A stretch of 64,000 bases of DNA, from assembly GCA_963719225.1 (NCBI GenBank), contig CAVRAY010000002.1:640001-704000 (forward strand). Reading direction: 5' to 3'. Origin of the DNA: Thermoanaerobaculia bacterium. Its GTDB lineage: Bacteria; Acidobacteriota; Thermoanaerobaculia; UBA5066. The notes below the pieces were generated by a model. That model was not told where the DNA came from, searched no databases, and worked only from the letters and a program-made list of their open reading frames with translations. The position numbers and the translations under genes are program-made. Shown here piece after piece: positions 28,174 to 57,335 of the stretch. The number at the start of each line of letters is the position of its first letter. Position 1 is the first letter of the stretch.

Positions 28174-29607
28174 TTTTTTACCGCGGCGGACGTCGCGCGC
28201 GCGACGGGGACGGCCGTGCCCGCGGGCGCGCCGGACGGCTTCCCGTCCGTCTCGACCGACACGCGGGGGATTCCCGCGGGTGCCCTCTTCGTTGCGCTGA
28301 AGGGCGAGCGCTTCGACGCGCACGCGTTCCTCGCCCAGGCGAAGGCGAAGGGCGCCGGGGCCGCCGTCGTGCGCAAGGGCACGCCGGCGGTGCCGGGCCT
28401 CGCGCTCTTCGAGGTGGGCGACACGCTCCGGGCGCTCGGCGCGCTCGCGGCGTTCCACCGGCGGCGTTTCCCGATTTCCGTCGCCGCCGTCGCGGGCTCG
28501 AACGGAAAGACGACGACGAAGGAGATGCTCGCCGCGATCCTCGAGACGCGCGGCGCCGCGCTCGCGACGGCGGGGAACCTGAACAACGAGGTCGGGGTGC
28601 CGCTCACGCTGCTGCGCCTCACGAAGGAGCACGTCGCGGCGGTCGTCGAGGTCGGGATGTCGGCGCCGGGGGAGCTCGCACGGCTGACGGAGATGACGCG
28701 CCCCGACGCCGGCGTCGTGACGCTCGTCGCCGCCGAGCACCTCGAGTTCCTGAAGGACCTCGACGGCGTCGCGGACGCGGAGGGAGAGCTCTACCGCGGC
28801 CTTCTGCCCGGCTCCGTCGCCGTCGTGAACGCGGACGATCCGCGCTGCCTGGCGCAGGCGGAGCGGGTGGCGGGCGGCGTGAAGAAGATCTTCTTTGGAA
28901 AGAGCGCTCTCGCCGACGTTCGTCTTCTGTCGGTAACGCCCTTGGGTTTGGAGGGTCAGAAGATCTGCTTAGAAGGGGAAGAGTGGGACGGCCGTTCGGG
29001 AGGCGGGCGCCTCGGCGGAAACCTACAGCGCAGCAGGTGCGACATCATGCTGGGGTTCGTGGGGGAGCACAACGCCATGAATGCCGTGGCGGCGGCGGCC
29101 ACGGCGCGGGCTCTCTCTTACTCATTCGAGGAGATCTCCCGGGGTCTCTCCTTGGTCCGTCCGTATGCGCACCGTTCTCGAATCGTTGCGGGGGCGGGCG
29201 GGATCACGATCCTCGACGACTGCTACAACGCCTCGCCCGCGTCGATGCAGGCCGCGCTCGCGACGCTGACGTCGCTCGTCGCGGCCGGGGGCGGGAAGGG
29301 CCGGGCGGTCGCGGTCCTCGGCGACATGCTGGAGCTGGGAGAGGCCGAAGAGGAAGAGCATCGAAAGTTGGGGAGAGGGGCGGAGGGGCGAGTCGAGCTG
29401 GCCGCTTTCTTCGGGCCGCGTTCCTCTCTTACATTCAAAGAATTCTTCTCTTCTTCTTCTTCTTCCGCCCACTTCACCGAGATCGAAGCCCTCCTCGCGT
29501 GGCTGCGTCCGCAGCTCCGGGCGGGAGACGTCGTCCTCGTGAAGGGGAGCCGGGGGATGAAGCTCGAGCGCGTCGTCGACGCCCTCGCCGCCCCGGCGAC
29601 GGCCTGA
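28174..29607 (+). CDS. murF: UDP-N-acetylmuramoyl-tripeptide--D-Ala-D-Ala ligase; start codon unclear
   Basis: STDTR, LFVALKGERFDAH, GSNGKTTTKE, GNLNNEVGVP, DDCYNASP, VLGDMLELG, VKGSRGMKLE. MurF-like FFTAADVARATG begins at 28174 without a canonical start; first GTG is 28216. Confidence 0.9.
   Translation, partial: FFTAADVARATGTAVPAGAPDGFPSVSTDTRGIPAGALFVALKGERFDAHAFLAQAKAKGAGAAVVRKGTPAVPGLALFEVGDTLRALGALAAFHRRRFPISVAAVAGSNGKTTTKEMLAAILETRGAALATAGNLNNEVGVPLTLLRLTKEHVAAVVEVGMSAPGELARLTEMTRPDAGVVTLVAAEHLEFLKDLDGVADAEGELYRGLLPGSVAVVNADDPRCLAQAERVAGGVKKIFFGKSALADVRLLSVTPLGLEGQKICLEGEEWDGRSGGGRLGGNLQRSRCDIMLGFVGEHNAMNAVAAAATARALSYSFEEISRGLSLVRPYAHRSRIVAGAGGITILDDCYNASPASMQAALATLTSLVAAGGGKGRAVAVLGDMLELGEAEEEEHRKLGRGAEGRVELAAFFGPRSSLTFKEFFSSSSSSAHFTEIEALLAWLRPQLRAGDVVLVKGSRGMKLERVVDALAAPATA
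28965..29444. repeat. Degenerate copies of the intragenic TTCGAAG-core motif in murF
   Basis: CTGCTTAGAAGGGGAAGAG 28965-28983, TTACTCATTCGAGGAGATCT 29118-29137, CTTACATTCAAAGAATT 29428-29444, all in AT-enriched patches. Confidence 0.4.
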
Positions 29608-29608
29608 G

Positions 29609-30139
29609 CTACCGGCCCGCCGCGGCCTTCGCGGGAGCCTCCGCGAGCAGGCGAAGGACGGCATCCTCCATCGCGGGGCTCTTGAGGCCCGCCTTTCGGC
29701 CCTCGGCGATCGCCTCTTCCCTCGTGCGCCCGCGCCGGTACGCGATGACCGCGAGCGTGGCGCCGACTCGATTGCTGCTCGAGCAGTAGATGAGGACGGG
29801 GGCGGCCTTCTGGCCGGAGAGGACGGCCTCGACCTTCGCGACGTCCCCGAGCGAGAACGTGTCCGGTGCGACCGGCACGGACACGAACGCGAGGCCCTGA
29901 GCCTCCACGGCCTCGCGGGCCTGCGCGACGCCTTCCCGCGGCTGGCGCAGGTCGATCGCCGTGCGGAATCCGGCGGCTTTCAACGAGGCGAACGCCTCCT
30001 TCGACGGCTTGCCCGAGACGGCAAGGCTCGGCGAGAGCCGCTGGTAGTTCATCGCGTCGAGCGACTCCGGGATGCCTGCAGCCGCGGCGAGAGCGGGCGC
30101 GAGCGTGAGGACGAGAGCGGGGAAGAGCCGGTTCTTCAT
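29609..30139 (-). CDS. Secreted DUF442/PTP-like (sulfurtransferase or phosphatase fold) protein
   Basis: Signal peptide, SGKP, GFRTAIDLR, PVLIYCSSSNRV (Cx4R). Start ATG 30139. Confidence 0.78.
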   Translation of the reverse strand: MKNRLFPALVLTLAPALAAAAGIPESLDAMNYQRLSPSLAVSGKPSKEAFASLKAAGFRTAIDLRQPREGVAQAREAVEAQGLAFVSVPVAPDTFSLGDVAKVEAVLSGQKAAPVLIYCSSSNRVGATLAVIAYRRGRTREEAIAEGRKAGLKSPAMEDAVLRLLAEAPAKAAAGR

Positions 30140-30159
30140 GGCATGTCTCCGATCCGACT

Positions 30160-31299
30160 CTAACGCGTGAGCGCGGCGCGCGCGTCGAGAACCCTTCGGC
30201 GGGCGTCGCGGGGCGTCGGCGCCAGTGCCGTCAGGTGGCCCATCTTGCGGCCGGGCCGCGGCTCCTTCTTGCCGTAGAGGTGGAGCGCGACGCCCGGCGA
30301 GGCGCAGGCTCTCTCCCACGCGGGCGTGCCGCCGGCCCACAGGTCGCCGAGAAGGTTCGCCATCGCGGCCGGCCGCAGGAGCTCCGTCGACCCGAGCGGC
30401 AGGCCGCAGACGGCGCGCAGCTGCTGCTCGAACTGGCTCGTGACGCAGGCGTCGATCGTGAGGTGCCCCGAGTTGTGCGGCCGCGGGGCGATCTCGTTCA
30501 CGAGCAGCGCGCCGTCCTTCGTATGGAAGAGCTCGATGCAGAGAACCCCGACGAAATCAAGCGCTTCGAGGATCGTCCGAGTGATTTCGTAAGCTCGTGT
30601 TTCTTCGAAGGTGGACAGAGCGGAGGGACAGCGGGTGACGTCGAGGATGTGACTGCTGTGTTCGTTCTCGAAGGAAGGAAAGAACACGACACGACCATCA
30701 GAGCTACGCGCCGCGATGACCGAGACTTCCCGCTCGAACTCGATGAAGGATTCGAGGACGCACGGCACCCTGCCGAGGCGGCCCCACGCAGCTTCCGCCT
30801 CCCGTTCATCCTTCGAGGAAATCCTCTCTTGTCCCTTCCCGTCGTACCCGAATGCGGCCGTCTTGAGAACCGCCGGGGCGCCGACCAGGGACAGCGCGGA
30901 GGCGAGCTCGTCGTTCGTGCGCACGGCCACCCACGACGCGAGAGGGACATTCACCTTTCTAAGAAATTCCTTTTCCCTCTCTCGATTCTGGCTCACCCAG
31001 AGCGCTTCGGCGGAAGGGTGGACCGGGACAAGGCGCTCGACTTCGTCGAGCGCCGCCCGCGGCACGTTCTCGAACTCGAACGTGAGGACGTCGAGGCCCT
31101 TCGCGAATGCGCGAAGCGCGTCGAGGTCGTCGTACGGAGCCGAGACCTCGACATCCGCGACGTGGCCGGTCGGCGAGTCCGTCTCGGGCGAAAACGTGTG
31201 CACGCGGTAGCCCATCGTCCGCGCCGCGAGGGCGAACATGCGTCCGAGCTGGCCGCTTCCGAGGACGCCGACCGTGGAGCCCGGGGGGACGATCCTCAC
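30160..31299 (-). CDS. purK: N5-carboxyaminoimidazole ribonucleotide synthase
   Basis: [49 protein letters not shown]. Confidence 0.96.
30601..30965. repeat. Intragenic inverted motif copies in purK
   Basis: TTCTTCGAAGGTGGA 30601-30615, TTCATCCTTCGAGGAA 30805-30820, ATTCACCTTTCTAAGAA 30949-30965. Confidence 0.55.
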
Positions 31300-31799
31300 G
31301 GGAGCCGGGACTGCAAGACCTTCCGGGTCTGTCTTGATCGGAAGGCCTTGAGCTTCTTCCGAAGCGCGGGCCGCGTGTTCGAGACGATCGCCGCCGCGAG
31401 GAGACCCGCGTTCGTCGCCCCCGCCTTGCCGATCGCGAGCGTGCCGACCGGCACGCCGGCCGGCATCTGCGCGATCGAGAGGAGGGAGTCGAGGCCCTTG
31501 AGCGCGCGGCTCTCGACGGGGACGCCGAGGACCGGCACGGCCGTCTGCGCGGCGAGCATCCCGGGAAGGTGCGCGGCACCGCCCGCTCCCGCCACGATCA
31601 CTTCGAGGCCGCGGGCCTCGGCCTCGGCCGCGTACGCCGCGAGCAGTCTCGGCGTTCGGTGGGCCGAGACGACGCGCCTCTCGTACGGGACGCCGAGCCG
31701 TTCGAGCGCGTCGGCGGCGTGCCTCATCGTCTCCCAGTCGGACGTCGAGCCCATCACGAGGCCTACGAGAGGCTTCGGCCTTCGTCCGCCCTTCTTCAT
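31296..31799 (-). CDS. purE: N5-CAIR mutase
   Basis: [36 protein letters not shown]. Confidence 0.97.
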
Positions 31800-31832
31800 G
31801 GGCGCGATCCTACCGTGAGGGCCCGGGCGTGC

Positions 31833-32690
31833 TCAGGCGCTCCAGGCGCGGGCGGTCTCGGCCGCGAATTCGTCGAAGCGGCGAGGCGCATGCCCGAGGA
31901 GCGCCGTGAGGCGCGCGACGTCCTCGGGCGTGGCCTTGAGGCCGTGTTCCTGGAAGAACTCGTACATGAGCCGGAAGTCGAACGCCGCGAACGCGGGAAG
32001 GTACGCGAGCGAGGCCTTCTCCCACGCGTCGAGGTCGTTCCCGCCGTACGCGATCTTGCGGCCGAGGACGCCGCCCCACGTCGCGGCCGTACCCGTCGCG
32101 GTCAGGAGGTCCGGCCCGACGAGGTTGACCGTCTCGTTCTTCGCGGCATCAGACACGAGCGCGAGCGCGGCCGCCTCCGCGATGTCGCGGACGTCCACGC
32201 GCGACAGGCCGGTGTCGCCGAACGGCTGCGGGTAGACGTCGTGCGTGAGCATCTCGTCCCGGTACCAGAGGTCGTTCTGGTAGAAGTTGTTCGGCCTGAG
32301 GATCGTGAAGGGGATTCCCGAGTCCCTGATCGCCGCCTCGATCGGGAGCTTCGCCCCGAAGTGCGGGAGATGCGGCGCCTCGTCCACGCGGTGGACGGAG
32401 AGGAACACGATCTTCTTCACGCCCGAGAGCCGGCAGCCGTTGACGGCCATGAGGCCCTCGTGGCACTCGCTCGCGCTCAGGGCGGTCAGGACGAAGACGG
32501 CGTCCCGTCCGGCGAAGGCGGATCGGATCGTGGCGGGGTCCAGGAGGTCCCCGACGACGGCCCGCGCCCCGGAGGGCACGGGCTTTTTCGCGTCGCGCGT
32601 GAGGATCGAGACGTCCGTGCCTCGTTTCAGGAGCTCCTGGGTGACCTGGGACCCGACGGTTCCGGTGCCCCCGAGGACGAGGACGTTCAT
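31833..32690 (-). CDS. NmrA-like NAD(P)-binding atypical SDR
   Basis: GGTGTVG Rossmann motif, PHFGAK, TILRPNNFYQN, VDVRDIAE. Start refined to ATG 32690. Confidence 0.88.
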   Translation of the reverse strand: MNVLVLGGTGTVGSQVTQELLKRGTDVSILTRDAKKPVPSGARAVVGDLLDPATIRSAFAGRDAVFVLTALSASECHEGLMAVNGCRLSGVKKIVFLSVHRVDEAPHLPHFGAKLPIEAAIRDSGIPFTILRPNNFYQNDLWYRDEMLTHDVYPQPFGDTGLSRVDVRDIAEAAALALVSDAAKNETVNLVGPDLLTATGTAATWGGVLGRKIAYGGNDLDAWEKASLAYLPAFAAFDFRLMYEFFQEHGLKATPEDVARLTALLGHAPRRFDEFAAETARAWSA

Positions 32691-32700
32691 CAGGGGCATC

Positions 32701-34002
32701 CTAGCCCATGTGGGCGATGACCGCGTCTCCGAACTTGCTGCACGAGACCTCGGTGGCGCCTTCCATCTGGCGCGCGAAGTCGTACGTGACGGTCTTGGCC
32801 CGGATCGCGCCGTCCATTCCCTTCAGGATGAAGTCGGCGGCCTCGGTCCAGCCCATGTAGCGCAGCATCATCTCGCCGGAGAGGACGACGGAGCCCGGGT
32901 TCACCTTGTCGAGGTTCGCGTACTTCGGCGCGGTGCCGTGCGTCGCCTCGAAGATGGCGTGGCCGGTCACGTAGTTCACGTTGCCGCCGGGCGCGATGCC
33001 GATCCCGCCGACCTGCGCGGCGAGCGCGTCGGAAAGGTAGTCGCCGTTCAGATTCAGCGTCGCGATGACGTCGAACTCGTCGGGCCGCGTGAGGACCTGC
33101 TGGAGCGTGATGTCCGCGATGGCGTCCTTGACGAGAATCTTGCCCTTCGCGAGCTCGGCCTTCTGCTCCGCGTTCGCCGCGGCCTCGCCCTTGTCCTTCT
33201 TCGTCCGCTCCCACTGGTCCCACGTGTACGTCTTTTCCGCGAACTCCCTCTCGGCGAGCGCGTAGCCGTAGTTCCGGAACGCGCCTTCCGTGTACTTCAT
33301 GATGTTGCCCTTGTGGACGAACGTGACGCTCTTCGACTTGTTCCTGATCGCGTACTCGATCGCCGCCCGGATGAGACGCTCGCTGCCCTCCTGCGAGACC
33401 GGCTTGATGCCGAAGCCCGTCGTCGCGGGAAAGCGGAGCTTCTTGTACTGGGCCGGGAAGTTCTCCTTGATGAACGCCGCGAGCTTCTGCGCCTCGTCCG
33501 TCCCCGCCGCGAACTCGATCCCGGCGTAGATGTCCTCGGTGTTCTCCCGGAAGATGACCATGTTCACCTTCTCGGGGTGCTTCACGGGAGACGGGACGCC
33601 CTGGAACCACCGCACGGGGCGGAGGCAGACGTAGAGGTCGAGGAGCTGCCGGAGCGCGACGTTCAGCGAGCGGATCCCGCCGCCGATCGGCGTCGTGAGC
33701 GGGCCCTTGATGCCCACGAGGTACTCGCGGAACGCGTCGATCGTCTCGTCGGGGAGCCACGTCTGGAGGTTGTCGTAGGCCTTCTGCCCCGCGTAAACTT
33801 CCATCCACTGGATCTGCCTCTTGCCGCCGTAGGCCTTCGCGACCGCGGCGTCGAGGACGCGCACGGACGCGCGCCAGATGTCCGGGCCGGTGCCGTCCCC
33901 CTCGATGAAGGGCAGGATCGGACGGTCGGGGACCTGGAGCTTCCCGCCGGAGATCGTGATCTTCTGTCCCGTGGCGGGCACCGTGGGCTTGGCGCTGGGC
34001 AT
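32701..34002 (-). CDS. icd: NADP-dependent isocitrate dehydrogenase
   Basis: [77 protein letters not shown]. Confidence 0.97.
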
Positions 34003-34097
34003 GGGCGTCCTCCTTCGTTCGGGCGCGAATCATAGGGGCCGCCCGACGGTCCCGGCAACGAAGCGAATGAATCAGTCCGGCGGGTCGTCCGCGGGCG

Positions 34098-35816
34098 TCA
34101 ATCCTGGTCGAGACGCGCCTCGCGCGGATACGGGTAGACGTCCACGATCTCGCCGGCGCGCTCGCGCCTCTGCGCGTCGAGCCAGAAGCGGACGTCGAGG
34201 AGGTCCCCGTGCCGCTCGAGGAAGGCCTCGCGCGGCTCCCCCCTCAGCCCCATGAACGTCAGGAACTCCTCGGGGAAGACGTCGTTCTCCCCGACGTAGA
34301 ACGACGCGTCCGCCGCTCCGGTCTCGTCCCCCGCGCAGGCCGGGAGCTCGCGGAAGCGGACGTCGGTCAGGAAGGAGATCTCGTCGTAGTCGTAGAAGAC
34401 GACCCGGCCGTGCCGGGTCAGGCCGAAGTTCTTCGGCAGGAGGTCGCCGGGAAAGATGTTCGACTTCGCGAGGTCGCGGATCGCCTCGCCGAAGTCCACG
34501 ACCGCGGAGCAGCCTCCGGCGGGAGGCGCGTCCTTCAGGTAGAGATCGAGCGGCGTCAGGCGGCGCTCCGTGAAGAGGTGGTGGAGGACGACCTCGTCGC
34601 CGCGCACCTCGACGGTCTCGGAGATGCCGGTGAGGAGCGCGTCGAGGAGCGCGGGCTCGAAGCGTGAGACGGGAAACGAGAGGTGCTCGAACTCCTGCAC
34701 GTCCGCGAGCCGGCCGGCGCGCGTGTGGCGGAAAACGAGCCGGTACTTGTCGAGAACGTCCTTCCGGCTCGCCGTCTTCGGGGGCGCGAAAGAGTCGCGG
34801 ATGACCTTGAAGACGACGTCGTAGGACGGGAGCGTGAAGACGAGCATGACCATCCCGCGGGCGCCGGGAGCCTCGACGAAGCGGTCGTCCGACGACGCGA
34901 AGTGGCGGAGGAGGTCGCGGTAGAGCTCCGTCTTGCCGTGCTTGTCGAACCCGAGGGCGTTGTAGAGCTCTCCGACGGGCTTCTTCGGCATGAGCGTCTT
35001 CAGGAACCCGACGAGCGCGGCCGGGTGGCCGGCGTCCACGTGGAAGTAGGAGCGCGTGAAGCTGAAGACGATCGAGACCTCGTCCTCGTCGCAGAGGACG
35101 GCGTCGACCTCGATCCGTCCCGTGCGATTCAGGAGAGCGAAGACGACGGGCCTCTGGCGGCCGCCCCGGCGGACACGCCCGATGAGGTACGCCCCCTTGC
35201 TCCGGAAAAAGACGGGCCTCAGGACATCCAGCGCGTCGAACTCCGGGGCTCCCCACGCCGCGCCGAGGATCCGCTCGAGGGCGCGTGTCGCGAGGGCCGC
35301 GTCGCGCGCGAGATTCTCCCAGCCGGCGGCGAAGGGATGCGCCGCGAGCGCGCTCCTCACCGCCGCCTCGCGGCCGGGCCGGCCGTCGTACGAGGCGAGT
35401 AAACGCCCGGCGGCCTCGACGGGGAGCGGCGCGGGCTCGCGGTGGACGAACTCGGCGCGGTCGTCGACGCCGACAGTGTGGAAGATGCGGCGCGAGGCCG
35501 AGTTGAAGAACGTCTCGACGAGTTCGGCGTCGCGGCGCGGGGCGACGAGCTCCGCGAAGTGCTCTTTCATCCCGGACCAGACGCCTGGGTCGTCGACGCC
35601 CACGCCGAGGACGCGGCGGAGGTCCCCGACGGCGGAGTCGAGCGTCCGGCGGTAGAGCTCGAGGCGCTCGAGTGCGTCCGTCCGTCCGCTGCGCCAGTCG
35701 CGCGCGGAGAACCGGACGCCCGCCCGCCGCGTGATCGCGGCGAATGCCTGCGCATACGCCTCCCAGCCGGCGAGGAGGCGCTCGGCGCCGGCGCGGACGG
35801 CGTCGCGCGGGATCAC
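34098..35816 (-). CDS. aceK: Isocitrate dehydrogenase kinase/phosphatase
   Basis: ETFFNS, FSFTRSYF, KHGKTELYR, APGARGMVM, VFKVIRD, IFPGDLLPKNFG, VVFYDYDEI, DVFPEEF. Confidence 0.95.
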   Translation of the reverse strand: MIPRDAVRAGAERLLAGWEAYAQAFAAITRRAGVRFSARDWRSGRTDALERLELYRRTLDSAVGDLRRVLGVGVDDPGVWSGMKEHFAELVAPRRDAELVETFFNSASRRIFHTVGVDDRAEFVHREPAPLPVEAAGRLLASYDGRPGREAAVRSALAAHPFAAGWENLARDAALATRALERILGAAWGAPEFDALDVLRPVFFRSKGAYLIGRVRRGGRQRPVVFALLNRTGRIEVDAVLCDEDEVSIVFSFTRSYFHVDAGHPAALVGFLKTLMPKKPVGELYNALGFDKHGKTELYRDLLRHFASSDDRFVEAPGARGMVMLVFTLPSYDVVFKVIRDSFAPPKTASRKDVLDKYRLVFRHTRAGRLADVQEFEHLSFPVSRFEPALLDALLTGISETVEVRGDEVVLHHLFTERRLTPLDLYLKDAPPAGGCSAVVDFGEAIRDLAKSNIFPGDLLPKNFGLTRHGRVVFYDYDEISFLTDVRFRELPACAGDETGAADASFYVGENDVFPEEFLTFMGLRGEPREAFLERHGDLLDVRFWLDAQRRERAGEIVDVYPYPREARLDQD

Positions 35817-36985: not shown

Positions 36986-37026
36986 CACGTCTCCTCGAGC
37001 ATGCATTCGATGTTAGCGGAGTGGGA

Positions 37027-47626: not shown

Positions 47627-47644
47627 GCGACCGACGGCCCGTGG

Positions 47645-47714: not shown

Positions 47715-47726
47715 CGGGTCCGGTCT

Positions 47727-48824: not shown

Positions 48825-48895
48825 GCGGCGGAGTCTACCGGAAGGGTGGCGTTAACGCCGGGGAAGCGGCGCCCTGAAAAAGCCGACGAGGCCGC

Positions 48896-49186
48896 TCACG
48901 GCTTCGTTTTCAGGACGGCGACCGTCGCGCCCCAGCCCCCCCGCTCGGGCGTCGCGTCCGCGAAGGACACGACGTGAGGCGAACGCTCGAGGACCCGGCG
49001 GACGATCGCCCGCTGGACCCCGATGCCGCGTCCGTGAACGACCCGGACCTCGCGAAAGCCCTTCTCCGCCGCGGCCGCGAGGTACTCCGCGACGACGGCC
49101 GCCGTTTCGTCCGGCCGGAACGGATGCAGATCGAGCGCGTCCTCGACGGGGAGCGCCAGCGCCGATTCGGGGTCCGCGCCGTCCAT
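48896..49186 (-). CDS. Stand-alone Smr/MutS2 domain protein
   Basis: LDLH, VRVVHGRGIG, GGWGATVAVL. Confidence 0.9.
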   Translation of the reverse strand: MDGADPESALALPVEDALDLHPFRPDETAAVVAEYLAAAAEKGFREVRVVHGRGIGVQRAIVRRVLERSPHVVSFADATPERGGWGATVAVLKTKP

Positions 49187-49225
49187 CGTCCTAGAATAGC
49201 GTCCTCGACTTCATGAGGTGACACG

Positions 49226-50143
49226 ATGAAGAGACTCGTCTCCGCGTTCGCTCTGCTCGGGCTCCTTTCGTCTCCGGCCCTCGCGCAGAGCAACAAGCCC
49301 CGGGTGGCCGTCCTCGAGTTCAAGAACAAGGCGTCGCATTACTCGTGGAGCTGGTACGACGCCGGGCGCGGCGCCCAGGACATGCTCGTGACCGAGCTCG
49401 TCAAGACCGGAAAGTACCGGGTGATCGAGCGCGAGCAGCTCGCCGCGATCATGCAGGAGAAAAACCTCTCGCTCTCGGGGGACATCGACCCGCGCACGGC
49501 CGTCAAGATCGGCAAGATGCTCGGCGTCGAGTACCTCATCGCCGGCGCGGTGACCGAGCTCGGCGTCACGGATCGAGGAGCGAGCGTGCCCGGGGGACTC
49601 GGGCGTTTCGGCCTGCCCTCCGTGAGCGTGCGCTCGCAGAAGGCGGAGGCCGCGCTCGACGCGCGCGCGTTCTCCACGTCCACGGGCGAGATCGTGTGGG
49701 CGGACACCGCGCGGGACGAGACCTCGGACGCGAGCGTCTACGTCGCAGGCGCGGGCGGCGGCGCCTCCGACCACGGCAAGGTCGACAAGATCATGCGGCC
49801 CGTCGTCCAGAAGCTCGCCGCGTCGTTCGCGAAGGCGGACGTCAAGACGTCCGGCATGGGCGGCAGGAGCGACGCGTCGGGCATCGTCGGGAAGATCGCG
49901 AAGGCGGACGGCGGCATGCTCTACGTGAACGTCGGCTCGGAGGGCGGCGTCAAGGAAGGCGACGAGTTCACGGTCTACCGCGTCGGCGAGCAGATCAAGG
50001 ACCCGGATACGGGCGAGGTGCTCGGGGCGAACGAGACCCGGGTCGGCCGCGTCAAGATCACGTCCGTGAAGGGCCCGCGCCTCTCGACGGCCGCAGCGAT
50101 CTCGGGTAGCGGCTTCCGGGCGGGCGACACGCTGAAGAACTGA
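49226..50143 (+). CDS. CsgG/HfaB-like (TolB-N fold) secreted protein with FlgT-C-like beta domain
   Basis: Signal peptide, RVAVLEF, YRVIEREQL, KIGKMLGVEYLIAGAVTE, YVNVG..GVKEGD, IKDPDTGEVLG. GAGGTG SD. Confidence 0.8.
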   Translation: MKRLVSAFALLGLLSSPALAQSNKPRVAVLEFKNKASHYSWSWYDAGRGAQDMLVTELVKTGKYRVIEREQLAAIMQEKNLSLSGDIDPRTAVKIGKMLGVEYLIAGAVTELGVTDRGASVPGGLGRFGLPSVSVRSQKAEAALDARAFSTSTGEIVWADTARDETSDASVYVAGAGGGASDHGKVDKIMRPVVQKLAASFAKADVKTSGMGGRSDASGIVGKIAKADGGMLYVNVGSEGGVKEGDEFTVYRVGEQIKDPDTGEVLGANETRVGRVKITSVKGPRLSTAAAISGSGFRAGDTLKN

Positions 50144-50168
50144 GGAGAAGAGAACCAGATTCCCGGTC

Positions 50169-52010
50169 TTATCTTCCGGAAAGATCTCTGGCTTCACGCA
50201 CGCGGGGAGAGCGTGGGGCTCTCTGCCCGGCCTTGTCGAGCTCGTCGCGAAGCTCGCCGCGCGCGTCGGCGAACGCGAGTCCCATGACCCACCCGGCGTC
50301 CGGGCCCGGGTTCGGGCCCATGGCCTCGACCTCCTCGGCGACGAAGCGCAGGACGCGCGTCTCGGCGGCCGGACCGGCGTCGCGAAGCGCCCGCGTGAGG
50401 AGCTGCCACGCCTCGGCGTTCCGGCCGTCCGCGTACGCGACGCCGGCGCGCGCGTACGCGTCGAGGAAGCGCACCTCGGCCGTCGGCCGCCGCGCAAGCA
50501 CCTCGCGCGCCGTCCCCATGGCGCTCACGAAATCCTCGCGCGTCAGGCGCGAGCGGCCGTGCGTGTCGAGCGCCTCCCACGCGGCGGAGAGCTGCGTGTC
50601 GCCCGAGAATCCGGCGCCGGAGAGGAGGGGAGGGAAAGAGGTCTGTTTCGGACGCGGGGGGGCGGACGATTCGCGCGTCGAGCTTCCGGCCGCGCTTCGG
50701 GAGGCGATGCGAGGATTTTCGGATTTTTCTTCGAAGGGTGAAGAGGGGCCGCGCGCACCCGCCGCCGAAGCGGCGGGCGGGGCGGAAACGGCCGCCGGCC
50801 CCGTATTCACTTTCGAAGAATCCTCTTCGGACGTTGCGGCTGGCGAGGCGCCGGTCGAGGGGGCGGCTGCCGCGGTCGCCGGGGTCCCTTCTTTCTCACT
50901 CGAAGAACTTCCGGGCGGCACCTTCGTCTCCGCGCTGCTCGACGCGCTCGGGTGGCCCGTCCCGCGCAGCAGGAGGAACGCCCCGACGCCGACGCTCAGG
51001 AGGAGGATCGCGCCGATCGCCCACTTCGTCCGCTTCGTCGGGTCGACGCCCGGGACGGGCGCGGAGGCGGGCGCGGCGAGAGGCGGCGAGGCGAAGTCCT
51101 TCGACGCGACCGTTCGGAGCTGCGAGAGGCCCGCGCCGGCCTCGGGCATCGGCTGCGGAACCGTGGCGGCGGCGCTCGGCACGCCCAGCGCGTCACCGAG
51201 CGCGCGCACGAACGCGCCGCACGTCGCGTAGCGCTCCTCGGGCTTCTTCGCGAGCGCCTTGCCCAGCACGGCGTCCGCGGCCGCCGGGCTGCCGGGCAGG
51301 ACCGTCGACAGGGGCGGAGGCGGCGCCGTGACCTGCTGGTGGAGGACGGCGAGCGGCGAGTCGGCGAGGAACGGCACGCGGCCCGCGAGGAGCTCGAACG
51401 CGACGACCGCGAGCGCGTACTCGTCGGCGCGCCCGTCGAGCGCGCCGCCCGTCGCCTGCTCGGGCGCCATGTAGAGCGGCGTCCCCATCACGGTGCCCGT
51501 CGCCGTGAGGCCCGACGTCGCGTCGACGCTGCGCGCGAGGCCGAAGTCCGCGAGGAGCGGCCGGCCCTGCGAGTCCATGAGGACGTTCGCGGGCTTGATG
51601 TCGCGGTGGAGAATCCCCTTGCCGTGCGCGTGGTCGAGCGCGCTCGCGATCGCGGCGAGCCACGCGACCGCGAGCGGCGGCGGGACCGGGCCCGCACCGC
51701 GGGCCTTCAGCGAGCCGCCCGCGACGAGCGGCATGACGAGGTAGGAGACGTCCTCGCCGTCCACGGTGGCCGCACCGTAGTCGTAGACGGGCAGGACGTT
51801 CGGGTGCTCGAGGCCCGCGACGAGGCGCGCCTCGCGCAGGAAACGCTCCCGGAACGTCGGGTCCTGCGCGACGGGACCGAGAATCACCTTGACGGCGACC
51901 GTGCGCTTGAGCGTCTCGTCCTCGGCCTTCCAGACCTCGGACATGCCGCCCGTGCCGGCGCGCTCGAGGAGGCGGTAGCGCCCGAGAACCGTGCCCGTCG
52001 TGATCGGCAT
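50169..52010 (-). CDS. Hanks-type Ser/Thr protein kinase with TM helix, low-complexity linker and helical C-domain
   Basis: GTGGMSEV, VAVK, HRDIKPAN, DFG, GTPLYMAPEQ; TM segment WAIGAILLLSVGVGAFLLL. Confidence 0.93.
   Translation of the reverse strand: MPITTGTVLGRYRLLERAGTGGMSEVWKAEDETLKRTVAVKVILGPVAQDPTFRERFLREARLVAGLEHPNVLPVYDYGAATVDGEDVSYLVMPLVAGGSLKARGAGPVPPPLAVAWLAAIASALDHAHGKGILHRDIKPANVLMDSQGRPLLADFGLARSVDATSGLTATGTVMGTPLYMAPEQATGGALDGRADEYALAVVAFELLAGRVPFLADSPLAVLHQQVTAPPPPLSTVLPGSPAAADAVLGKALAKKPEERYATCGAFVRALGDALGVPSAAATVPQPMPEAGAGLSQLRTVASKDFASPPLAAPASAPVPGVDPTKRTKWAIGAILLLSVGVGAFLLLRGTGHPSASSSAETKVPPGSSSSEKEGTPATAAAAPSTGASPAATSEEDSSKVNTGPAAVSAPPAASAAGARGPSSPFEEKSENPRIASRSAAGSSTRESSAPPRPKQTSFPPLLSGAGFSGDTQLSAAWEALDTHGRSRLTREDFVSAMGTAREVLARRPTAEVRFLDAYARAGVAYADGRNAEAWQLLTRALRDAGPAAETRVLRFVAEEVEAMGPNPGPDAGWVMGLAFADARGELRDELDKAGQRAPRSPRVREARDLSGR
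50721..50823. repeat. About 100-bp palindromic element in frame within the kinase linker
   Basis: Ends TTCTTCGAAGGGTGAA 50727-50742 and TTCACTTTCGAAGAA 50806-50820; inner GGGGCC/GGCCCC stem and hairpin CCCGCCGC-CGAA-GCGGCGGG. Confidence 0.65.
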
Positions 52011-52031
52011 GCCGGACAGGATATCGGAGCG

Positions 52032-54512
52032 TCAGCCCGAGACGGCGGCGTCGGCTTCCGCGGCGTGGTAGAGCACGACGGAGCCGGGGCCCGCCTTCAC
52101 GGCCTCCCCGAGCGCGTCCTCGGCGCGCGCGAGGAGGGTGGCCGTGTCGAACGCGTCGTCGGGGTAGACCGAGATCCCGGCCGAGAGCGCGAGCGTGACG
52201 CCGGACTGCGCGAGCCGCTCGTCGAGGCCGTTCTCGAAGTTCTTCTGGATCGACCGCATCGCGCGGTGCGCCTGGACCTTGCCCGCCTCGAAGATCAGGA
52301 TGTAGAAGCGGTCGTCCCCGTCGCGCGCGACGAAGTTCACGGCGCGGGTCGAGCGGACGAGCTTCGCCGCGAGCTTCGGGAGGAGCGAGTCGCCGTACTC
52401 GGCTCCGAGGCGCAGGACGGACTCCTTGAGCCCGTCCATCCGGATGTGCGCGACCGCGACGGCCTGGCCGTTCCGCTCGGCCCGCCTCACCTCGGACTCG
52501 AGCCGCTTGCCGAGCGACGAGCGGTTGTAGAGGCCCGACTGGCTGTCGCGCTCCGTCTGCTGCTCGATGAGGCGCATGAGGCGCGCGTTGTGAAGAGCGA
52601 CGGCGGCCGCGTCCGCGAGGAGCTCGAGGCGCTCCTTGAGGTCGACGGGCCAGTCGTCGACGCCGCGGCGCGCGGCGACGGACAGGACGCCGATAAGCTC
52701 GTCGTGGTACGTGAGCGGAACGGCGGCTGCCCGGATGAGCGGCGCGGCCCCGCCCCCCGCGTTGCCGGGATAGAACGAGGCGCCCTCGGCGGGGCCGGCC
52801 ACGGCGAGCGTCTTGTCGAGGAACGTGCGGACGATCGGCTGCGCGGTCTGGTCGAACGGAACGGCCCGCCCGAGCTCGTCTCCGACGTCCGCCCCCCAGC
52901 GCGCTCCGATCTTCACGGACTTGGAGGCGGGATCGGCGTCCCAGAACTGCGCGGCGTCCGCCTTCAGCAGGCTCACGGCCTGCTCGCAGAGGGTCTGCTT
53001 GATCCGGTCGATGTCGAACGTCGTCGACAGCGAGCGGCCGACCTCGCGGAGCCGGTCGAGGAAGCGGTACGACTCGCGCTCCTGCTGGAGGAGCCGCACG
53101 GACGCGATCGCGAGGGAGACCTCCACGCCGAGCGCCTCGAAGGAGGGGAGGAGGTCGGCCGGGAGGCCGTCGGGGCGCGCCCCGGAGACGGCGCAGAGGA
53201 CGCCGACGGGCGCGCCGCGGTAGGCGAGCGGGACCGCGAGGAGACCGAGCGGCGTCGCGAGCGACGCGACGGCCGGGCCGCTCGGGAGAAGCGCCTTTCC
53301 GTGCTTGTCGGAGGACGCGTCCACGTAGAACGCGTGGGAGCCCTCCGTCGAGAGGTGGGTCAGGAGCGACTGGGGAATCTGGACCTCCACCGCGCCGCCC
53401 GCCTTCAGGCACGCCGCGTCGGCGCCCGGCAGCTCGCCGGACGGAAGCAGCCGGATCGCGCAGAGGTCGAGGTCGAATTGCGCCGCGAGCTCGGTGACGG
53501 TGCGGCTCACGATCGCGTGGACGTCCGTGAGGCCGGTGAGGGCGGCGTGGAGCCGCCCGACGAAGGCGACGCGCTCGTTGTTGTGGCGCTCGCCGTCGAG
53601 GAGGCGCGCCTTCTCGAGCGCTCCGGCCGCGAGCTTCGAGAGCTCCTGCGCGAGCCGGAGCTCCTGGGGCGTGAGCGCGAAGCCGCCGCGCCGCGACATC
53701 GTGAGGAAGCCGAACACGTGAGCGCCCGCATGGAGGGGCAGCGCCATCCGCCGGCGGCGAACGGGCTGCGTTCCCGGCTCGTCCTCGAACGCGGGGCCGT
53801 GCGCGGCGAGGCACCGCGCGAGGAGGTCGTCGGAGGCGATCGGCGCGCGGCCGGAACGGGGGCGTTCGCCGCTCACGGGGGCCCCGTGCGTCAGGATCTC
53901 GGCGATCTCCTTGGAGTCGGGCTGGAACCGGAACGCGCTCACGCGGTCGAACTCCAGCTCGCGCGAGAGGGACGCGACGGTCAGGCGGATGACTTCGTCG
54001 GGGTTGAGCGAGAGGAAGGCGCCCGAGGCGAGCTCGAACAGGGCGACGGCCTCCTCGCGGCGCTTCATGAGAGTCCCGAGCGTGCGGTCGCGCTCGAGCA
54101 CGTGGCCGATCGTGCGCGCGAACTGCCGCGCCGCATCCTCGGCCTCGGCGTCCGTGCCCGCGATCGTCTCGAGGACGACGCCGAAGACCGCCTGCGTCTG
54201 GTCCTTGACCTTGACCGGCGCGCCGAAGAAGGAAAGCCCGCCCTCGGACGCCTTCTTGGAGCGGCCCTGGGCGAGGACCTCGGCGAGGTGCTGGTTCAGG
54301 CGCGTCTCGGCGGCGGCGGCGACGCTCGAGCGGCCCGAGCGCGTCATCGGCGGGACGCCGGCGCCGGGCAGGAGCGCGACGACGGGAGCGTCGAAGAAGT
54401 GCAGCGCCGAGTTCAGGATCCCGCCGAGCGCCTCGTCGAGCAGCAGGCCTTCCTTCAGCGCTCCTTCGAACGCCTTCAGGAGAGGGAGACCCGGGAAGCG
54501 AGCGGACGGCAT
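52032..54512 (-). CDS. Multi-GAF protein with degenerate GGDEF domain
   Basis: Repeated GAF-like units (LAVPLAYRG..VGVL, AVPLTYHDELIGVL, ALHNARL), DSQSGLYNR and SAGISVYP. Signature position reads RDGDDRF. Start ATG 54512. Confidence 0.85.
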   Translation of the reverse strand: MPSARFPGLPLLKAFEGALKEGLLLDEALGGILNSALHFFDAPVVALLPGAGVPPMTRSGRSSVAAAAETRLNQHLAEVLAQGRSKKASEGGLSFFGAPVKVKDQTQAVFGVVLETIAGTDAEAEDAARQFARTIGHVLERDRTLGTLMKRREEAVALFELASGAFLSLNPDEVIRLTVASLSRELEFDRVSAFRFQPDSKEIAEILTHGAPVSGERPRSGRAPIASDDLLARCLAAHGPAFEDEPGTQPVRRRRMALPLHAGAHVFGFLTMSRRGGFALTPQELRLAQELSKLAAGALEKARLLDGERHNNERVAFVGRLHAALTGLTDVHAIVSRTVTELAAQFDLDLCAIRLLPSGELPGADAACLKAGGAVEVQIPQSLLTHLSTEGSHAFYVDASSDKHGKALLPSGPAVASLATPLGLLAVPLAYRGAPVGVLCAVSGARPDGLPADLLPSFEALGVEVSLAIASVRLLQQERESYRFLDRLREVGRSLSTTFDIDRIKQTLCEQAVSLLKADAAQFWDADPASKSVKIGARWGADVGDELGRAVPFDQTAQPIVRTFLDKTLAVAGPAEGASFYPGNAGGGAAPLIRAAAVPLTYHDELIGVLSVAARRGVDDWPVDLKERLELLADAAAVALHNARLMRLIEQQTERDSQSGLYNRSSLGKRLESEVRRAERNGQAVAVAHIRMDGLKESVLRLGAEYGDSLLPKLAAKLVRSTRAVNFVARDGDDRFYILIFEAGKVQAHRAMRSIQKNFENGLDERLAQSGVTLALSAGISVYPDDAFDTATLLARAEDALGEAVKAGPGSVVLYHAAEADAAVSG

Positions 54513-54550
54513 GGCGGCGAATGGACATAATAGCGCCCCCGGAGGTGCCC

Positions 54551-56059
54551 ATGCAGAGCGCAAACGCGGACCCAAGCATCCGACCGTCGCCCGGGAGTGC
54601 GACCGAGTCCGCGTCCACGGACGGCCTCGCCCGTTCGCTCGAGCGGATCCTGCCCGCTCTCGAGCGCTTCGGGCGGTTCGAGGGTCCGGACGGCGCCGCG
54701 AAGCGGACGGCCTGGCGACGGGCGCTGGACGGCCCTCTGCCCGAGGAGGGCGTGGGGCGCGACGCGGTCCTCGACCTCCTCCGCGACGTCGTGATCCCGA
54801 ACGGCCTGAGGATCGGAGCGCCGGGATTCACCGGCTGGGTCACGACCTCGCCGACGACGGTGCCCGCGGTCGCCCAGCTCGCGGGCGCGGTCACCGCGGC
54901 GCAGCGCTGGTGGGCGACGCCGGGCAACTTCCTCGAGGTCCTCGCGCTGCGCTGGGCCGGACGCCTCGTCGGCCTCCCGGACTCGTTCGAGGGGTCCTTC
55001 ACGAGCGGAGGCGCGACCGCGAACCTGCTCGGCCTCGCCGCGGCCCGCCAGCACGCCGGCGAGCGCCGCGGCGTCGACCCGGGCCTCGACGGCCTCGCGG
55101 GCCTGCCGGAGCCGAAGGTCTACGCCTCGAGCGAGGTCCACCACGTCGTCCATCGGGCGTGCGGCGTCCTCGGGCTCGGACGCCGGGCGTTGCGCCTCGT
55201 CCCGGTCGACGCGGCACGCCGGCCGGATCTCGGGGCGCTCGAGCGTCTCCTGGACGAGGACGTGCGCGCGGGCGCGACGCCCGTCGCGGTCGTCGCCTCG
55301 GCCGGCGACGTGAACACCGGAGCCGTGGACCCCGTCGACGCGATGCGCGAGATCGCGCACGCGCACGGCGTCTGGCTGCATGTGGACGGGGCGTACGGCG
55401 GCTTCGGCGTCCTCGACCCGCGCGTCGCGCCTCTCTTCGGCGACCTCTCGCGGATCGACTCCTTCGCGGTCGACCCGCACAAGTGGATGGCGGCGCCCGT
55501 CGGCTGTGGCGCCGCCTTCGTGCGCGACGGCGGCGTCCTCGCGCGCTCTCTCACGCTCGAGCCGGCGGCCTACGTCGAGATGGCTCCGACGGACACGGGC
55601 GACACGGACTCGCCGTTCGACCAGATGGGCGAGGGCAACCCGAACTTCTCTCTCGACCATTCGGCGCCGCCGCGTGGCCTCGCCGTGTGGGCGCTCCTCA
55701 AGGAGATCGGCGCGCGCGGGATGAGGGAGCGCGTCGTGCGCCACCACGACTGTGCGCGGCGCGTCGCCGAGCGCGTCCGCGCCCACCCGGCGCTCGAGCT
55801 CCTCGCCGAGCCCGTCCTCTCGATCTGCTGCTTCCGCGTGAAGCCCGCGGGGGTGACGGACGAAGCCGCGCTCGACGCGCTGAACGAGAAGGTCCTGCTG
55901 AGCGTGCGGAAGACAGGCCGCGCGATCCCGTCGCACACGCGCGTGAACGGGCGCTTCGCCCTGCGCCCGTGCTTCATCAACCCGCGCCAGGGGCTCGCGG
56001 AAGCGGACGCCACGGTCGACGAGGTGCTCGCGGCGGCGCGGGAACTGGGGGCGGTCTAG
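54551..56059 (+). CDS. Group II PLP-dependent amino-acid decarboxylase
   Basis: FTSGGATAN, AGDVNTGAVDP, WLHVDGAYG, VDPHKWM (PLP Lys), LRPCFINP. ATG 54551 follows GGAGG. Confidence 0.92.
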   Translation: MQSANADPSIRPSPGSATESASTDGLARSLERILPALERFGRFEGPDGAAKRTAWRRALDGPLPEEGVGRDAVLDLLRDVVIPNGLRIGAPGFTGWVTTSPTTVPAVAQLAGAVTAAQRWWATPGNFLEVLALRWAGRLVGLPDSFEGSFTSGGATANLLGLAAARQHAGERRGVDPGLDGLAGLPEPKVYASSEVHHVVHRACGVLGLGRRALRLVPVDAARRPDLGALERLLDEDVRAGATPVAVVASAGDVNTGAVDPVDAMREIAHAHGVWLHVDGAYGGFGVLDPRVAPLFGDLSRIDSFAVDPHKWMAAPVGCGAAFVRDGGVLARSLTLEPAAYVEMAPTDTGDTDSPFDQMGEGNPNFSLDHSAPPRGLAVWALLKEIGARGMRERVVRHHDCARRVAERVRAHPALELLAEPVLSICCFRVKPAGVTDEAALDALNEKVLLSVRKTGRAIPSHTRVNGRFALRPCFINPRQGLAEADATVDEVLAAARELGAV

Positions 56060-56523
56060 GAGGCGTTCGTCGGGACCCGCCCGGTCGCCCAGAGGATCTG
56101 CGCGGCCATGACGAGCATTCCGAGGTCGCGGGCGACGTCCCACCGCATGTCCCGGATGCGCTCGGCGACGGACTTGCCGGCCGACGTCACGTCGAAGCAC
56201 CCGCAGTCGATTGCGTTCCCGCGCAGGAGATTGGCCGAGATCGCGGCGACGAAGACGAGGAGGAGCGCGCCGATCAGCGCCGCCGACGTCCGCGTCCAGA
56301 TCCCGAGGATGAGCGCGAGTCCGGCCAGCAGCTCGAACCACGGCAGGACGAGGGCCATGACGTTCACGAGCAGGCCGGGGACGAGCCGGTAGTTGTAGAC
56401 CATGTGCGCGAAGGCCGGCGGATCGGCGACCTTCGGGAGCGCCGCGGCGACGAAGAAGACGCCGAGCGCGATCTGGACGCGGACGGTGAGCCAGGGAGAG
56501 GTGAGCCGGCCGGCGAGCGTCAC
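56056..56523 (-). CDS. MauE/DoxX family membrane protein
   Basis: AALPKVADP..F...Y, LPWFELLAG, IDCGCF, RD. GTG 56523 overlaps the rhodanese stop. Confidence 0.88.
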   Translation of the reverse strand: MTLAGRLTSPWLTVRVQIALGVFFVAAALPKVADPPAFAHMVYNYRLVPGLLVNVMALVLPWFELLAGLALILGIWTRTSAALIGALLLVFVAAISANLLRGNAIDCGCFDVTSAGKSVAERIRDMRWDVARDLGMLVMAAQILWATGRVPTNAS

Positions 56524-57335
56524 GGCGCCCCCGGCCCCGGCCCGGTCGCGACCTTGCCCCCGCGCCTCACCCAGTCGGGCCAGCCGTCCCTGTAGACGAG
56601 GAGGTTGTCGAAGCCTCCGCCGAAGAGACGCTGGGCGAGCATGTGCGAGTCCTCGCAGTCGCCGCCGGAGCAGTAGACGACGACCGGGAGCTTCCCGTCG
56701 CGCGCCTCGTTCACGAGCGCCGTGACCTTCGTGTCCGCGTCCCCTTCCCACGGCGAGATGTTGCGTGCGCCCGGGACGTGGCCTTCCTCATAGTCCTTCG
56801 TCCGCCGCGCGTCGAGGACGAGGACGCCGTGGGCGACGAGCCACGCGGCATCGTCGCCCGAGATCTCGACGAACGGCTTGTTCGGATGGGAAGGGAAGCG
56901 GGAGAGGAGAAGACCCTTCTGCTCCCCCGCCGCGGGTGGCGCTGGAGCCGCGCCTGCGGGCTTCACGCCGGGGCCAGGGCGCTTTTCTTCGAAGGGTAAT
57001 TTGCCGGCAGCAGCGGCACGCGACGTGGCCCTCGAGGCGGCGGCGGTCGCGCGGGGCGCCGGGGAGGAAGCCCCGCCCTCATTCACCTTCGAAGAGACTT
57101 CTGACGGCGCGGCTGCTCCGGAGCCTGCAGGCGACGAGGGAGGCTGGACCGTCTGCGAGGGAGCAGAAGGTTTCTCCTCCCCCGTCTTCTTCTCCGGCGC
57201 CTTCAGGGCGTCCGGGTACGTTCCGACGAGCGGCAGCTTGCGTTCGCTGCGGGCGAGCGCGTTCGCGACGAACGCGCAGAGAACGGCGGCGGCGACGAGC
57301 GTGAGGGCCTCGCCGAAATGGCGCTTGAGATTCAC
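56520..57335 (-). CDS. Membrane-anchored rhodanese-domain protein
   Basis: N-terminal TM helix, LDARR..YEEGHVPGA, VVYCSGGDC, GWPDW. Start refined to GTG 57335, 7 nt after TAGAAT. Confidence 0.88.
   Translation of the reverse strand: MNLKRHFGEALTLVAAAVLCAFVANALARSERKLPLVGTYPDALKAPEKKTGEEKPSAPSQTVQPPSSPAGSGAAAPSEVSSKVNEGGASSPAPRATAAASRATSRAAAAGKLPFEEKRPGPGVKPAGAAPAPPAAGEQKGLLLSRFPSHPNKPFVEISGDDAAWLVAHGVLVLDARRTKDYEEGHVPGARNISPWEGDADTKVTALVNEARDGKLPVVVYCSGGDCEDSHMLAQRLFGGGFDNLLVYRDGWPDWVRRGGKVATGPGPGAP
56985..57096. repeat. About 112-bp element with inverted ends, in frame within the rhodanese linker
   Basis: TTCTTCGAAGGGTAAT 56985-57000 and ATTCACCTTCGAAGAG 57081-57096. Confidence 0.65.

Follow-up and report, generated by a model that had tools for sequence, protein, structure and literature searches.

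A lineage-restricted, mostly paired DNA site enriched towards the chromosome terminus of a Thermoanaerobaculia bacterium, with a putative chromosome-organising protein as its reader

Overview

A DNA site of about 800 copies, mostly arranged in head-to-head pairs about 75 bp apart, becomes denser from origin to terminus along the chromosome of a Thermoanaerobaculia bacterium. The site is polar, its pairs follow a spacing rule, its positions are conserved by way of rare codons, and the DNA around it is unstable in length. These features are best read as paired protein-binding sites, most likely cooperative sites for a putative terminus-biased DNA-binding protein. To the full statement, that this lineage-restricted site is read as double-stranded DNA by a putative chromosome-organising protein, we give a probability of roughly one half.

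Definition and number of the sites

The site is an asymmetric element of ~30 bases with the form purine flank–WTTTCTTMGAARG–purine flank. A matrix was trained on the genome, which holds one C-depleted artefact stretch that was masked before the final build, and a scan with this matrix gave 811 sites. The core is base-specific and non-compensatory: C3, G7, and A8 are fixed at 99%, and an unaltered A is found opposite a G in position 2 or a C in position 1. Genome-wide the most frequent central base is A (TTCTTAGAA, 52%) and not C (29%). The literal consensus of a preliminary description of this DNA has to be amended: its 15-mers have no exact match and its 16-mer only one in the window (the whole 64-kb stretch analysed).

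About two thirds of the sites (538/811) are coding, without transcriptional bias (275 sense, 263 antisense). Genes contained 521 real sites as against 50–63 in three within-gene synonymous shuffles, and 146 head-to-head pairs as against 1–3. A chance origin is dismissed because shuffled genes hold far fewer sites and pairs; the codon-shuffled control that the preliminary description had proposed thus came out in favour of both motif number and pairing. No description of the motif was found in the literature searched, and among the motif-string matches listed none concerned bacterial repeats by title. One strict pattern gave no exact pairs in viral contigs.

Orientation, spacing, and interiors of the pairs

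Neighbouring sites within 20–300 bp of each other were head-to-head in 257 cases, tandem in 69, and back-to-back in 10 across the genome. Among the 189 apparent singles, 56 have a weak partner on the inner side and one on the outer side. Pair spacing spans 65–250 bp, with a minimum of 65–68 bp and a mode of 75–79 bp, and a 10.5-bp helical phase was not seen (p 0.08–0.17). Between the arms the DNA returns to about 70% GC, the AT-rich part consisting of the motif, its flanks, and weak extra copies. No 16-mer was shared by 252 of 266 interiors, and the shared ones seen belonged to paralogous kinases. Intergenic pairs are not enriched between convergent genes (4/64; background 109/969) or divergent genes (16/64; background 310/969).

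Hairpin formation or arm-to-arm pairing was rejected on several grounds. Paired-arm identity was 4518, compared with 4447 ± 40 when the pairings were shuffled (z about 1.75), and a high-identity tail was absent among paired arms. The duplex energy of own arms (-15.63 kcal/mol) equals that of swapped arms (-15.58 kcal/mol), and the interiors gave folding z values of 0.13 (n = 52) and -0.22 (n = 89).

Sites and host genes in the window

Above 6 bits the genome-trained matrix finds exactly 11 sites in the window, all of them among those described previously and each where it had been placed. The + copy leads in every cluster, as had been claimed. The earlier distance of 90–360 bp needs correction: first-to-partner distances run from 85 to 468 bp, so that the third murF copy lies beyond 360 bp. 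The murF and purK names stand above NCBIfam cut-offs, whereas the kinase and rhodanese matches fall below theirs.

The murF gene (28216..29607, + strand; TIGR01143, 390 bits, cut-off 288.6) hosts three sites. L1 (28955..28986, centre 28970, +, 28.0 bits) encodes KICLEGEE, using a TTA codon, and opens a loop of ~20 residues that is missing from motif-negative relatives; it is kept in all 20 genomes of two sister genera, g1 and g10, and in none of five outside them. R1 (29113..29144, centre 29129, -, 17.4 bits) lies 159 bp from L1 and is kept in 18/20, while R2 (29422..29453, centre 29438, -, 30.7 bits) is kept in 13/20 and is accompanied by a serine-rich expansion. Three further sites lie in purK (30160..31299, - strand). 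The preliminary description saw no obvious insertion there, and alignment to outgroups bears this out with essentially unchanged length. Site L (30590..30621, centre 30605, +, 20.6 bits) is kept in 8/9 g1 genomes and 0/4 outgroups. R1 (30800..30831, centre 30816, -, 19.3 bits), 211 bp from L, is kept in 6/9, and R2 (30945..30976, centre 30961, -, 30.4 bits) in 9/9. R2 rewrites the protein, with a 10-residue segment altered relative to REKTFLRRSG in one outgroup.

In the Ser/Thr kinase-domain gene (50169..52010, - strand) all three sites fall inside a low-complexity linker: L (50716..50747, centre 50731, +, 21.9 bits), R1 (50800..50831, centre 50816, -, 22.4 bits; 85 bp from L), which encodes SSKVN as a conserved linker island, and R2 (50887..50918, centre 50903, -, 11.7 bits). 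The rhodanese-domain gene (56520..57344, - strand) likewise carries its pair in a linker. Here L (56974..57005, centre 56989, +, 21.6 bits) encodes LPFEEK and R (57076..57107, centre 57092, -, 23.6 bits; 103 bp from L) encodes SSKVNE; the pair is present in 5/5 homologous copies examined. It had been considered that such patches might be chimeric assembly segments. They are not chimeric joins, because the same patches recur in independent genomes; the whole window nonetheless lies in a duplicated block of ~190 kb (C2, 608–800 kb), which looks derived from a related species and may be either a chimeric join or a real transfer.

Conservation and lineage spread

Orthologous site positions are held in essential genes, often by way of rare TTA codons. 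The first murF site uses TTA in 13 of 21 genomes read, a codon that makes up 0.2% of Leu codons genome-wide. The patches of rare codons noted earlier are real: DNA no farther than 20 bp from a site makes up 0.8% of the genome and contains 69 of its 227 TTA codons (30%). Two relatives with 86% identity retain coding sites in 44/52 and 30/36 cases. Sites form conserved islands within otherwise divergent linkers and alter the amino acids. The suggestion that coding DNA carries a second, superimposed code is thus supported, because the sites are conserved at the DNA level, change residues, and stay fixed where linkers diverge. Site abundance is high in one genus, intermediate or decaying in its sister genus, and at background elsewhere in the phylum sample; the g10 genomes G050 and G110 are rich in the motif. 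Apart from one local CAGCTGC-type repeat in G032, no different paired motif was seen in 400 kb each of two motif-negative relatives, G032 and G048.

Origin of sites and local instability

Sites originate by substitution or by short in-frame expansions. Compared with a motif-negative genome, 8 of 15 pairs lie around ancestral coding sequence and account for no more than 2 added residues, and the other 7 have 3–40 additional residues. The gap rate between arms is 0.09–0.16 per codon as against 0.002–0.004, and site-bearing spacers show a median length change of 22–78 bp as against 2 bp. One deletion begins at the motif centre, relatives carry tandem duplications of single arms or entire pairs, and individual intergenic sites are gained and lost among relatives. 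Strong hypermutation between the arms was rejected. Four-fold-site differences were 0.46 and 0.45 against 0.32–0.33 in gap-rich comparisons; they were 0.43 against 0.39 in murF and 0.41 against 0.38 in purK, differences so small that any hypermutation is mild at most.

Distribution along the chromosome

From origin to dif, successive fifths hold 21, 50, 75, 89, and 131 sites on one arm and 47, 53, 89, 95, and 137 on the other, a four-fold climb in density on both arms (68 to 268 sites per fifth). The full gradient was measured in one assembly, and G057 agrees among the 100 of 295 matches listed. Coding and intergenic sites show the gradient alike, and gene counts are equal. Mutational supply is rejected as its cause because A+T at four-fold sites of site-free genes is nearly flat along the arms (0.099–0.109). 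Directly flanking dif are two pairs, which are absent from 2 of 8 g1 genomes, and long stretches without sites exist. A strand-skewed signal of the KOPS, Chi, or Ter kind was dismissed, since the sites have no replichore bias (399/811 leading); GGGNAGGG, by contrast, switches strand near dif.

Candidate readers and a possible mechanism

MatP (PF06303) was not found in 23/23 genomes searched, and an E. coli positive control matched. Cdc6_C and the PF00808 histone fold were also not found in these 23 genomes. A dif-linked ParB was rejected as reader, being present in 32/32 genomes with an identical helix-turn-helix in motif-negative genera. Topo IV, HU/IHF paralogues, ComEC, and a small basic 164-aa protein were set aside as they also occur in motif-negative relatives; for the small protein the Atlas leads were all under 0.9. 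A still incomplete gene-content search covered 0.8 Mb of the 4.2-Mb G032 genome and 0.4 Mb of the 5.6-Mb G048 genome, and in these parts the synteny gaps near the terminus and origin included no evident DNA-binding candidate.

If the sites bind a protein, a dimer would read the TTC-N3-GAA core, and the site would owe its direction to the GAAGAG-type flanks, read by additional subunits or through DNA-shape contacts. Two oriented complexes would cooperate over the short spacer. The 65–68 bp floor would then be steric, and the absent helical phase would point to a contact that flexes or slides, with no rigid loop. Through their graded density the sites would serve to compact or anchor the late-replicating chromosome half or to aid its segregation, a role that MatP/matS and ZapT play elsewhere. 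Under selection for pairs, substitutions would become fixed where domains are conserved, and short expansions would do so in loops and spacers. The broad gradient, with no confinement to a terminus domain, and the number of pairs speak against this reading. A more specific version is tentative, with the odds against it: a recently evolved protein may load or clamp at head-to-head pairs, in a paired loader-site geometry and not a loop, marking the late-replicating half on a gradient; in two genera this code would have altered core proteins by the hundred, and in some members it would be decaying again.

Alternative explanations

Intergenic site turnover and spacer length changes also fit a cutting or selfish system. 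A domesticated or selfish nuclease or transposase system, REPIN-, BoxC-, or MITE-like, would then use the pairs as substrates or have left them as relics; it would cut in the site or close by, with repair creating, duplicating, and deleting copies. Its attractions are the raised gap rate between arms, the 7/15 pairs with 3–40 extra residues, the deletion from the motif centre, the tandem duplications in relatives, a modal spacing near the 71-bp REPIN doublet described in the available part of PMC3116915, and comparable local instability at triplex motifs in that of PMC4666352. We nevertheless regard it as unlikely, as the 8/15 pairs around ancestral coding sequence, and likewise purK, gained at most 2 residues, 252/266 interiors have no common 16-mer, own- and swapped-arm duplexes are equal, and interiors are unfolded. 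Furthermore, searches for Y1 transposase in G000 and G001 and for DUF559 in five genomes found none, and no small gene was bracketed as a cassette. The domesticated palindromic element proposed earlier is accordingly weakened (arms not pair-specific, interiors unique, no RAYT or DUF559 found), and keeps the local insertions, deletions, and duplications on its side. More doubtful is a signal for DNA uptake or recombination, comparable to the neisserial DUS, that is kept up by molecular drive and recognised by a receptor favouring paired sites. Hundreds of copies, lineage restriction, protein rewriting, and permissive core-gene positions match DUS/USS as portrayed in the accessible portions of PMC2817400 and PMC2397512. 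ComEC and a ComEA-like protein are present, as are long site-free stretches. However, motif-negative relatives have ComEC too, a four-fold origin-to-terminus gradient would be unexpected from uptake drive, and paired DUS lie no more than 21 nt from each other and serve as terminators, a single DUS being sufficient (PMC2397512, same portions), whereas the present pairs are separated by 65–250 bp and do not mark the ends of convergent genes.

It is very improbable that the signal acts in RNA, where any transcript would carry a purine arm resembling a Shine-Dalgarno sequence and, after it, the antisense arm. Taken in reverse complement, the 16S 3' end plus spacer start scores 9.5 bits on the matrix, and a head-to-head pair is identical whichever way it is transcribed. 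Yet the coding strand has no G.U asymmetry (584 vs 559; 115 vs 97), singles lack sense bias (63/113), complementarity is not pair-specific, and anti-Shine-Dalgarno pairing does not need the fixed TTC half. Last and least credible are intragenic invertons, the pairs being inverted repeats switched by a global recombinase. Inverted orientation and 65–250 bp spacing suit invertible segments, but paired arms are no more similar than random arms, 20 murF and 9 purK copies all have the same orientation with the frame open, and essential genes are among the carriers. Intergenic interiors in relatives were reversed in 0/11 (7 forward, 4 ties), a result that does not support inversion sites or the recombination sites suggested in the preliminary description.

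Significance and comparison with known systems

To our knowledge, few bacterial DNA signals occur in such numbers that they rewrite a proteome, the textbook example being uptake sequences. The present site adds the pair grammar (orientation, minimum spacing, no phase) and the chromosome-scale gradient. The motif points to a putative protein that organises the terminus or handles DNA in a lineage both abundant and uncultured, and DNA-level constraints explain the odd S-rich and EK-rich loops and rare codons of these proteins. Moreover, the comparative series offers a direct way to test how an overlapping DNA code is gained and lost and what it costs the proteins.

With the neisserial DUS and the Pasteurellaceae USS the sites share an abundant lineage-specific motif (hundreds of copies) that rewrites core proteins at permissive positions. 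They differ in their obligatory-looking pairs 65–250 bp apart, non-terminator character, degenerate matrix, and terminus gradient. REPIN/RAYT elements are similar as inverted doublets with preferred spacing; REPIN/REP doublets lie ~70–110 bp apart and some REPs are intragenic, going by the available parts of PMC3116915 and PMC3733652. In contrast, two thirds of the present sites are coding, many arose without insertion, and they have no hairpin, compensatory change, or common spacer. RAYT (PF01797) was not found in the two g1 genomes G000 and G001, and is present in G050, G032, and motif-negative G048. BoxC/PIT/TM-ECO triplex motifs resemble the sites in purine-rich polarity, head-to-head pairs <100 bp apart, local instability, and unknown function, as far as the accessible text of PMC4666352 goes. 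Here the core is AT-rich and base-specific, no TM-ECO copies were found, and an ITxF-style triplex test (three stems of 6–15 nt, loops of 1–6 nt) was passed by 4 of 250 sites sampled from the 811 and by the positive control.

MatP/matS and ZapT share terminus-biased, dispersed DNA sites with the present system. In the available part of PMC7188993, the 13-mer matS occurs across an 800-kb stretch at the terminus, and Caulobacter ZapT has 10 peaks, mostly intragenic, without a consensus. The Thermoanaerobaculia chromosome instead carries about 250 pairs, far more than E. coli matS, and MatP was not found in any of the 23 genomes; its ~800 sites are polar, locally paired head-to-head, and graded along the whole chromosome.

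The Site and Its Controls

The 11 copies listed in the preliminary description were all recovered, and nothing else in the window scores above 6 bits. The consensus given there was slightly off: none of its 15-mers matches exactly, and its 16-mer does so once. The matrix was trained on all 4.75 Mb of the genome (68% GC; two contigs, C1 and C2) with a C-depleted artefact stretch masked. Once converged, it found 811 sites above 15 bits in the genome; genome-sized Markov-simulated DNA gave about 10–16 matches at 14–16 bits with the first matrix. Each site consists of a purine flank, W-TTTC-TTM-GAAR-G and a second purine flank, with core positions C3, G7 and A8 99% fixed and GAAGAG-type words at floating positions on either side of the core. 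Superposition of the signal on coding sequence goes beyond what codon-shuffled controls give: real genes contain 521 sites and 146 head-to-head pairs, against 50–63 and 1–3 in three synonymous shuffles. The motif is real, genome-wide and under selection, and is a form of overlapping DNA code. Genes were called by our own script (4,074 genes, 89.6% coding), and coding and intergenic site counts are approximate because some called starts are wrong.

The masked stretch (C1:54,000-64,000), in which one strand is nearly C-free (2 C in 2 kb), very probably arose as an artefact of sequencing or assembly. Separately, the 16S 3′ end and spacer start (C1:905,545, reverse strand) are motif-like at 9.5 bits.

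Pair Geometry

Neighbours at 20–300 bp are head-to-head in 257 cases, back-to-back in 10 and tandem in 69. Among 248 pairs at 50–300 bp, both sites fall in the same gene in 147 and in intergenic DNA in 64, the other 37 being mixed. Centre-to-centre spacing has a floor at about 65–68 bp and a mode at 75–79, and its tail extends to about 250; a 10.5-bp periodicity is not seen (p 0.08–0.17). Of 189 single sites, 56 are accompanied by a weak inner-side partner and 1 by an outer-side one. A strict pair pattern was found at 121 or more metagenome loci, about 90 of which look like this lineage, judged by eye from a table of GC content, flanks and best protein match; their preferred spacing is identical. 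Also noted were about nine paralogous Ser/Thr kinases arranged in tandem (C1:2,293,000-2,320,000), most of which carry the same 93-bp pair inside the catalytic domain.

Conservation and Origin of Sites

Alignment of murF covered 24 of 30 loci; the six left out were three incomplete ones and three from additional outgroups. The first site was present in 20/20, the second in 18/20 and the third in 13/20 genomes of the host genus and its sister genus, and none in the 5 outside. TTA encodes leucine in the first site in 13/21 genomes read; genome-wide it makes up 0.2% of leucine codons. The three purK sites are kept in 9/9, 6/9 and 8/9 genomes of the host genus and in 0/4 outgroups, one of them the unpublished G019. 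At 86% identity, two relatives keep 44/52 and 30/36 coding sites.

The preliminary description left open whether the patches are insertions or substitutions, and both were found. In purK the protein is rewritten at the sites without lengthening, and of 15 covered pairs compared with a motif-negative genome (G048), 8 gain no more than 2 residues and 7 gain 3–40, so that substitution and in-frame expansion both build sites. The motif-encoded peptides form the conserved islands of the kinase and rhodanese linkers. Site-bearing spacers differ in length by a median of 22.5 and 78 bp (n = 16, 15) in two relatives, against 2 bp (n = 28, 15) in the comparison; the events behind this are deletions and tandem duplications of arms. 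Between the arms, synonymous divergence shows no more than a mild increase.

The murF gene of both genera (window 28216-29607) shares only 38–44% identity with murF of the remaining genera in the family and order, which suggests a replaced copy. Its first site persists in a motif-poor genome of the sister genus.

A 16-base pattern was found in 24/24 other genomes of the host genus, 4/7 of the sister genus and 0/89 others of the order. A 13-base pattern gave 143–261 matches in four genomes of the host genus and never more than 21 in any of 247 others from the phylum; G019 was negative in both counts. The phylum is probably Acidobacteriota, to which most of the best purK matches belong. Within the sister genus, a 12-base pattern had 71 and 44 matches in two genomes but only 9 each in two more; the second murF site is likewise missing from this latter pair, consistent with decay. 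In the terminus region of one motif-poor sister genome (G032, L145-L164), CAGCTGC-type inverted words are locally overrepresented, probably as one repeat array.

The Duplicated Block

The window lies within a block of about 190 kb (C2:608-800 kb) that repeats C2:8-223 kb in inverted orientation, the two copies being about 78% identical. Compared with genomes G013 and G010 the window shows 84% identity, and compared with G003, with G017 or with its counterpart copy 78%, whereas the main contig matches G003 and G017 at 86%; the block is therefore DNA of a related species, through either chimeric misassembly or a very large transfer. Since the other copy also has the murF, kinase and rhodanese sites, the finding stands. 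Small mobile-type genes flank the block at C2:560-608 kb.

Distribution Along the Chromosome

The origin is marked by dnaA and parS at C2:326-334 kb. At C1:2,037,568 lies a dif-like site, with one site pair on either side. Once the duplicated block is taken out, the arms are balanced (2.26 and 2.17 Mb). From origin to dif, sites per fifth number 21, 50, 75, 89 and 131 on one arm and 47, 53, 89, 95 and 137 on the other, in coding and intergenic sites alike; A+T at four-fold sites of site-free genes is 0.099–0.109 throughout. Among the 100 of 295 matches listed for a relative (G057), 97 are forward matches on its main contig; successive 0.5-Mb intervals contain 12, 17, 28 and 25 of these and the following 0.2 Mb another 15, dif lying near 1.72 Mb.

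A second ParA-ParB operon adjoins dif (L034:961-2620, equal to C1:2,037,865-2,039,524). This ParB was found in all 32 genomes searched within the order; in the four that are near-complete it sits roughly across the chromosome from the origin ParB, and a terminus partition system is possible; no literature was found on a ParA-ParB system at dif. An imperfect palindrome of CCKAA-N5-TTMGG type, about 14–30 bp before dif, is conserved in most genomes of family f1 (L034, L115-L136). Topo IV occurs, within the sample, in f1 only.

Proposed Mechanism and Candidate Readers

In the best reading, with a probability of about one in two, the pairs would be cooperative binding sites of a putative chromosome-organising protein with a terminus bias. 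As candidates for this reader, the ParB beside dif, Topo IV, HU/IHF paralogues, ComEC and a small basic protein were rejected, each occurring in motif-negative relatives too. No reader was identified in the search, whose gene-content comparison covered part of the motif-negative genomes. None of 23 genomes yielded MatP, Cdc6_C or a histone fold. The small basic protein, of 164 aa and encoded at L265:2046-2540, has two similar halves and no Pfam match; it is present in 4/4 family members tested, was not found in one f2 genome, and has Atlas leads among unnamed Planctomycetota clusters only.

Alternative Explanations and Known Systems

A cutting or selfish system of REPIN/BoxC type is regarded as unlikely. 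REPINs are described as extragenic hairpin doublets of 71 or 110 bp with a RAYT (PMC3116915), and intragenic REPs as insertions (PMC3733652). Here, neither arm-to-arm pairing specific to a pair nor compensatory changes within the core were found, and the site is therefore read as sequence, not as a hairpin. An RNA signal is highly improbable. Sites show no bias by replichore or transcription, and pairs are not enriched at promoter-type or terminator-type spacers. TM-ECO elements are intergenic and require three 9-nt stems (PMC4666352); an ITxF-style triplex test was passed by 4/250 sampled sites. Invertons, in which the paired arms would bound a reversible segment, are scarcely credible. An uptake-type drive signal is quite unlikely; DUS likewise rewrite proteins, at permissive positions (PMC2817400), but are described as pairing solely as close terminators (PMC2397512).

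The motif belongs to no family tested. No published description of it was found in the accessible literature; the motif tables that accompany PMC4666352 and PMC3733652 could bear on novelty. For binding by a chromosome-organising protein, the systems compared are matS and ZapT, which share the terminus bias but differ from the motif in having few sites (PMC7188993).
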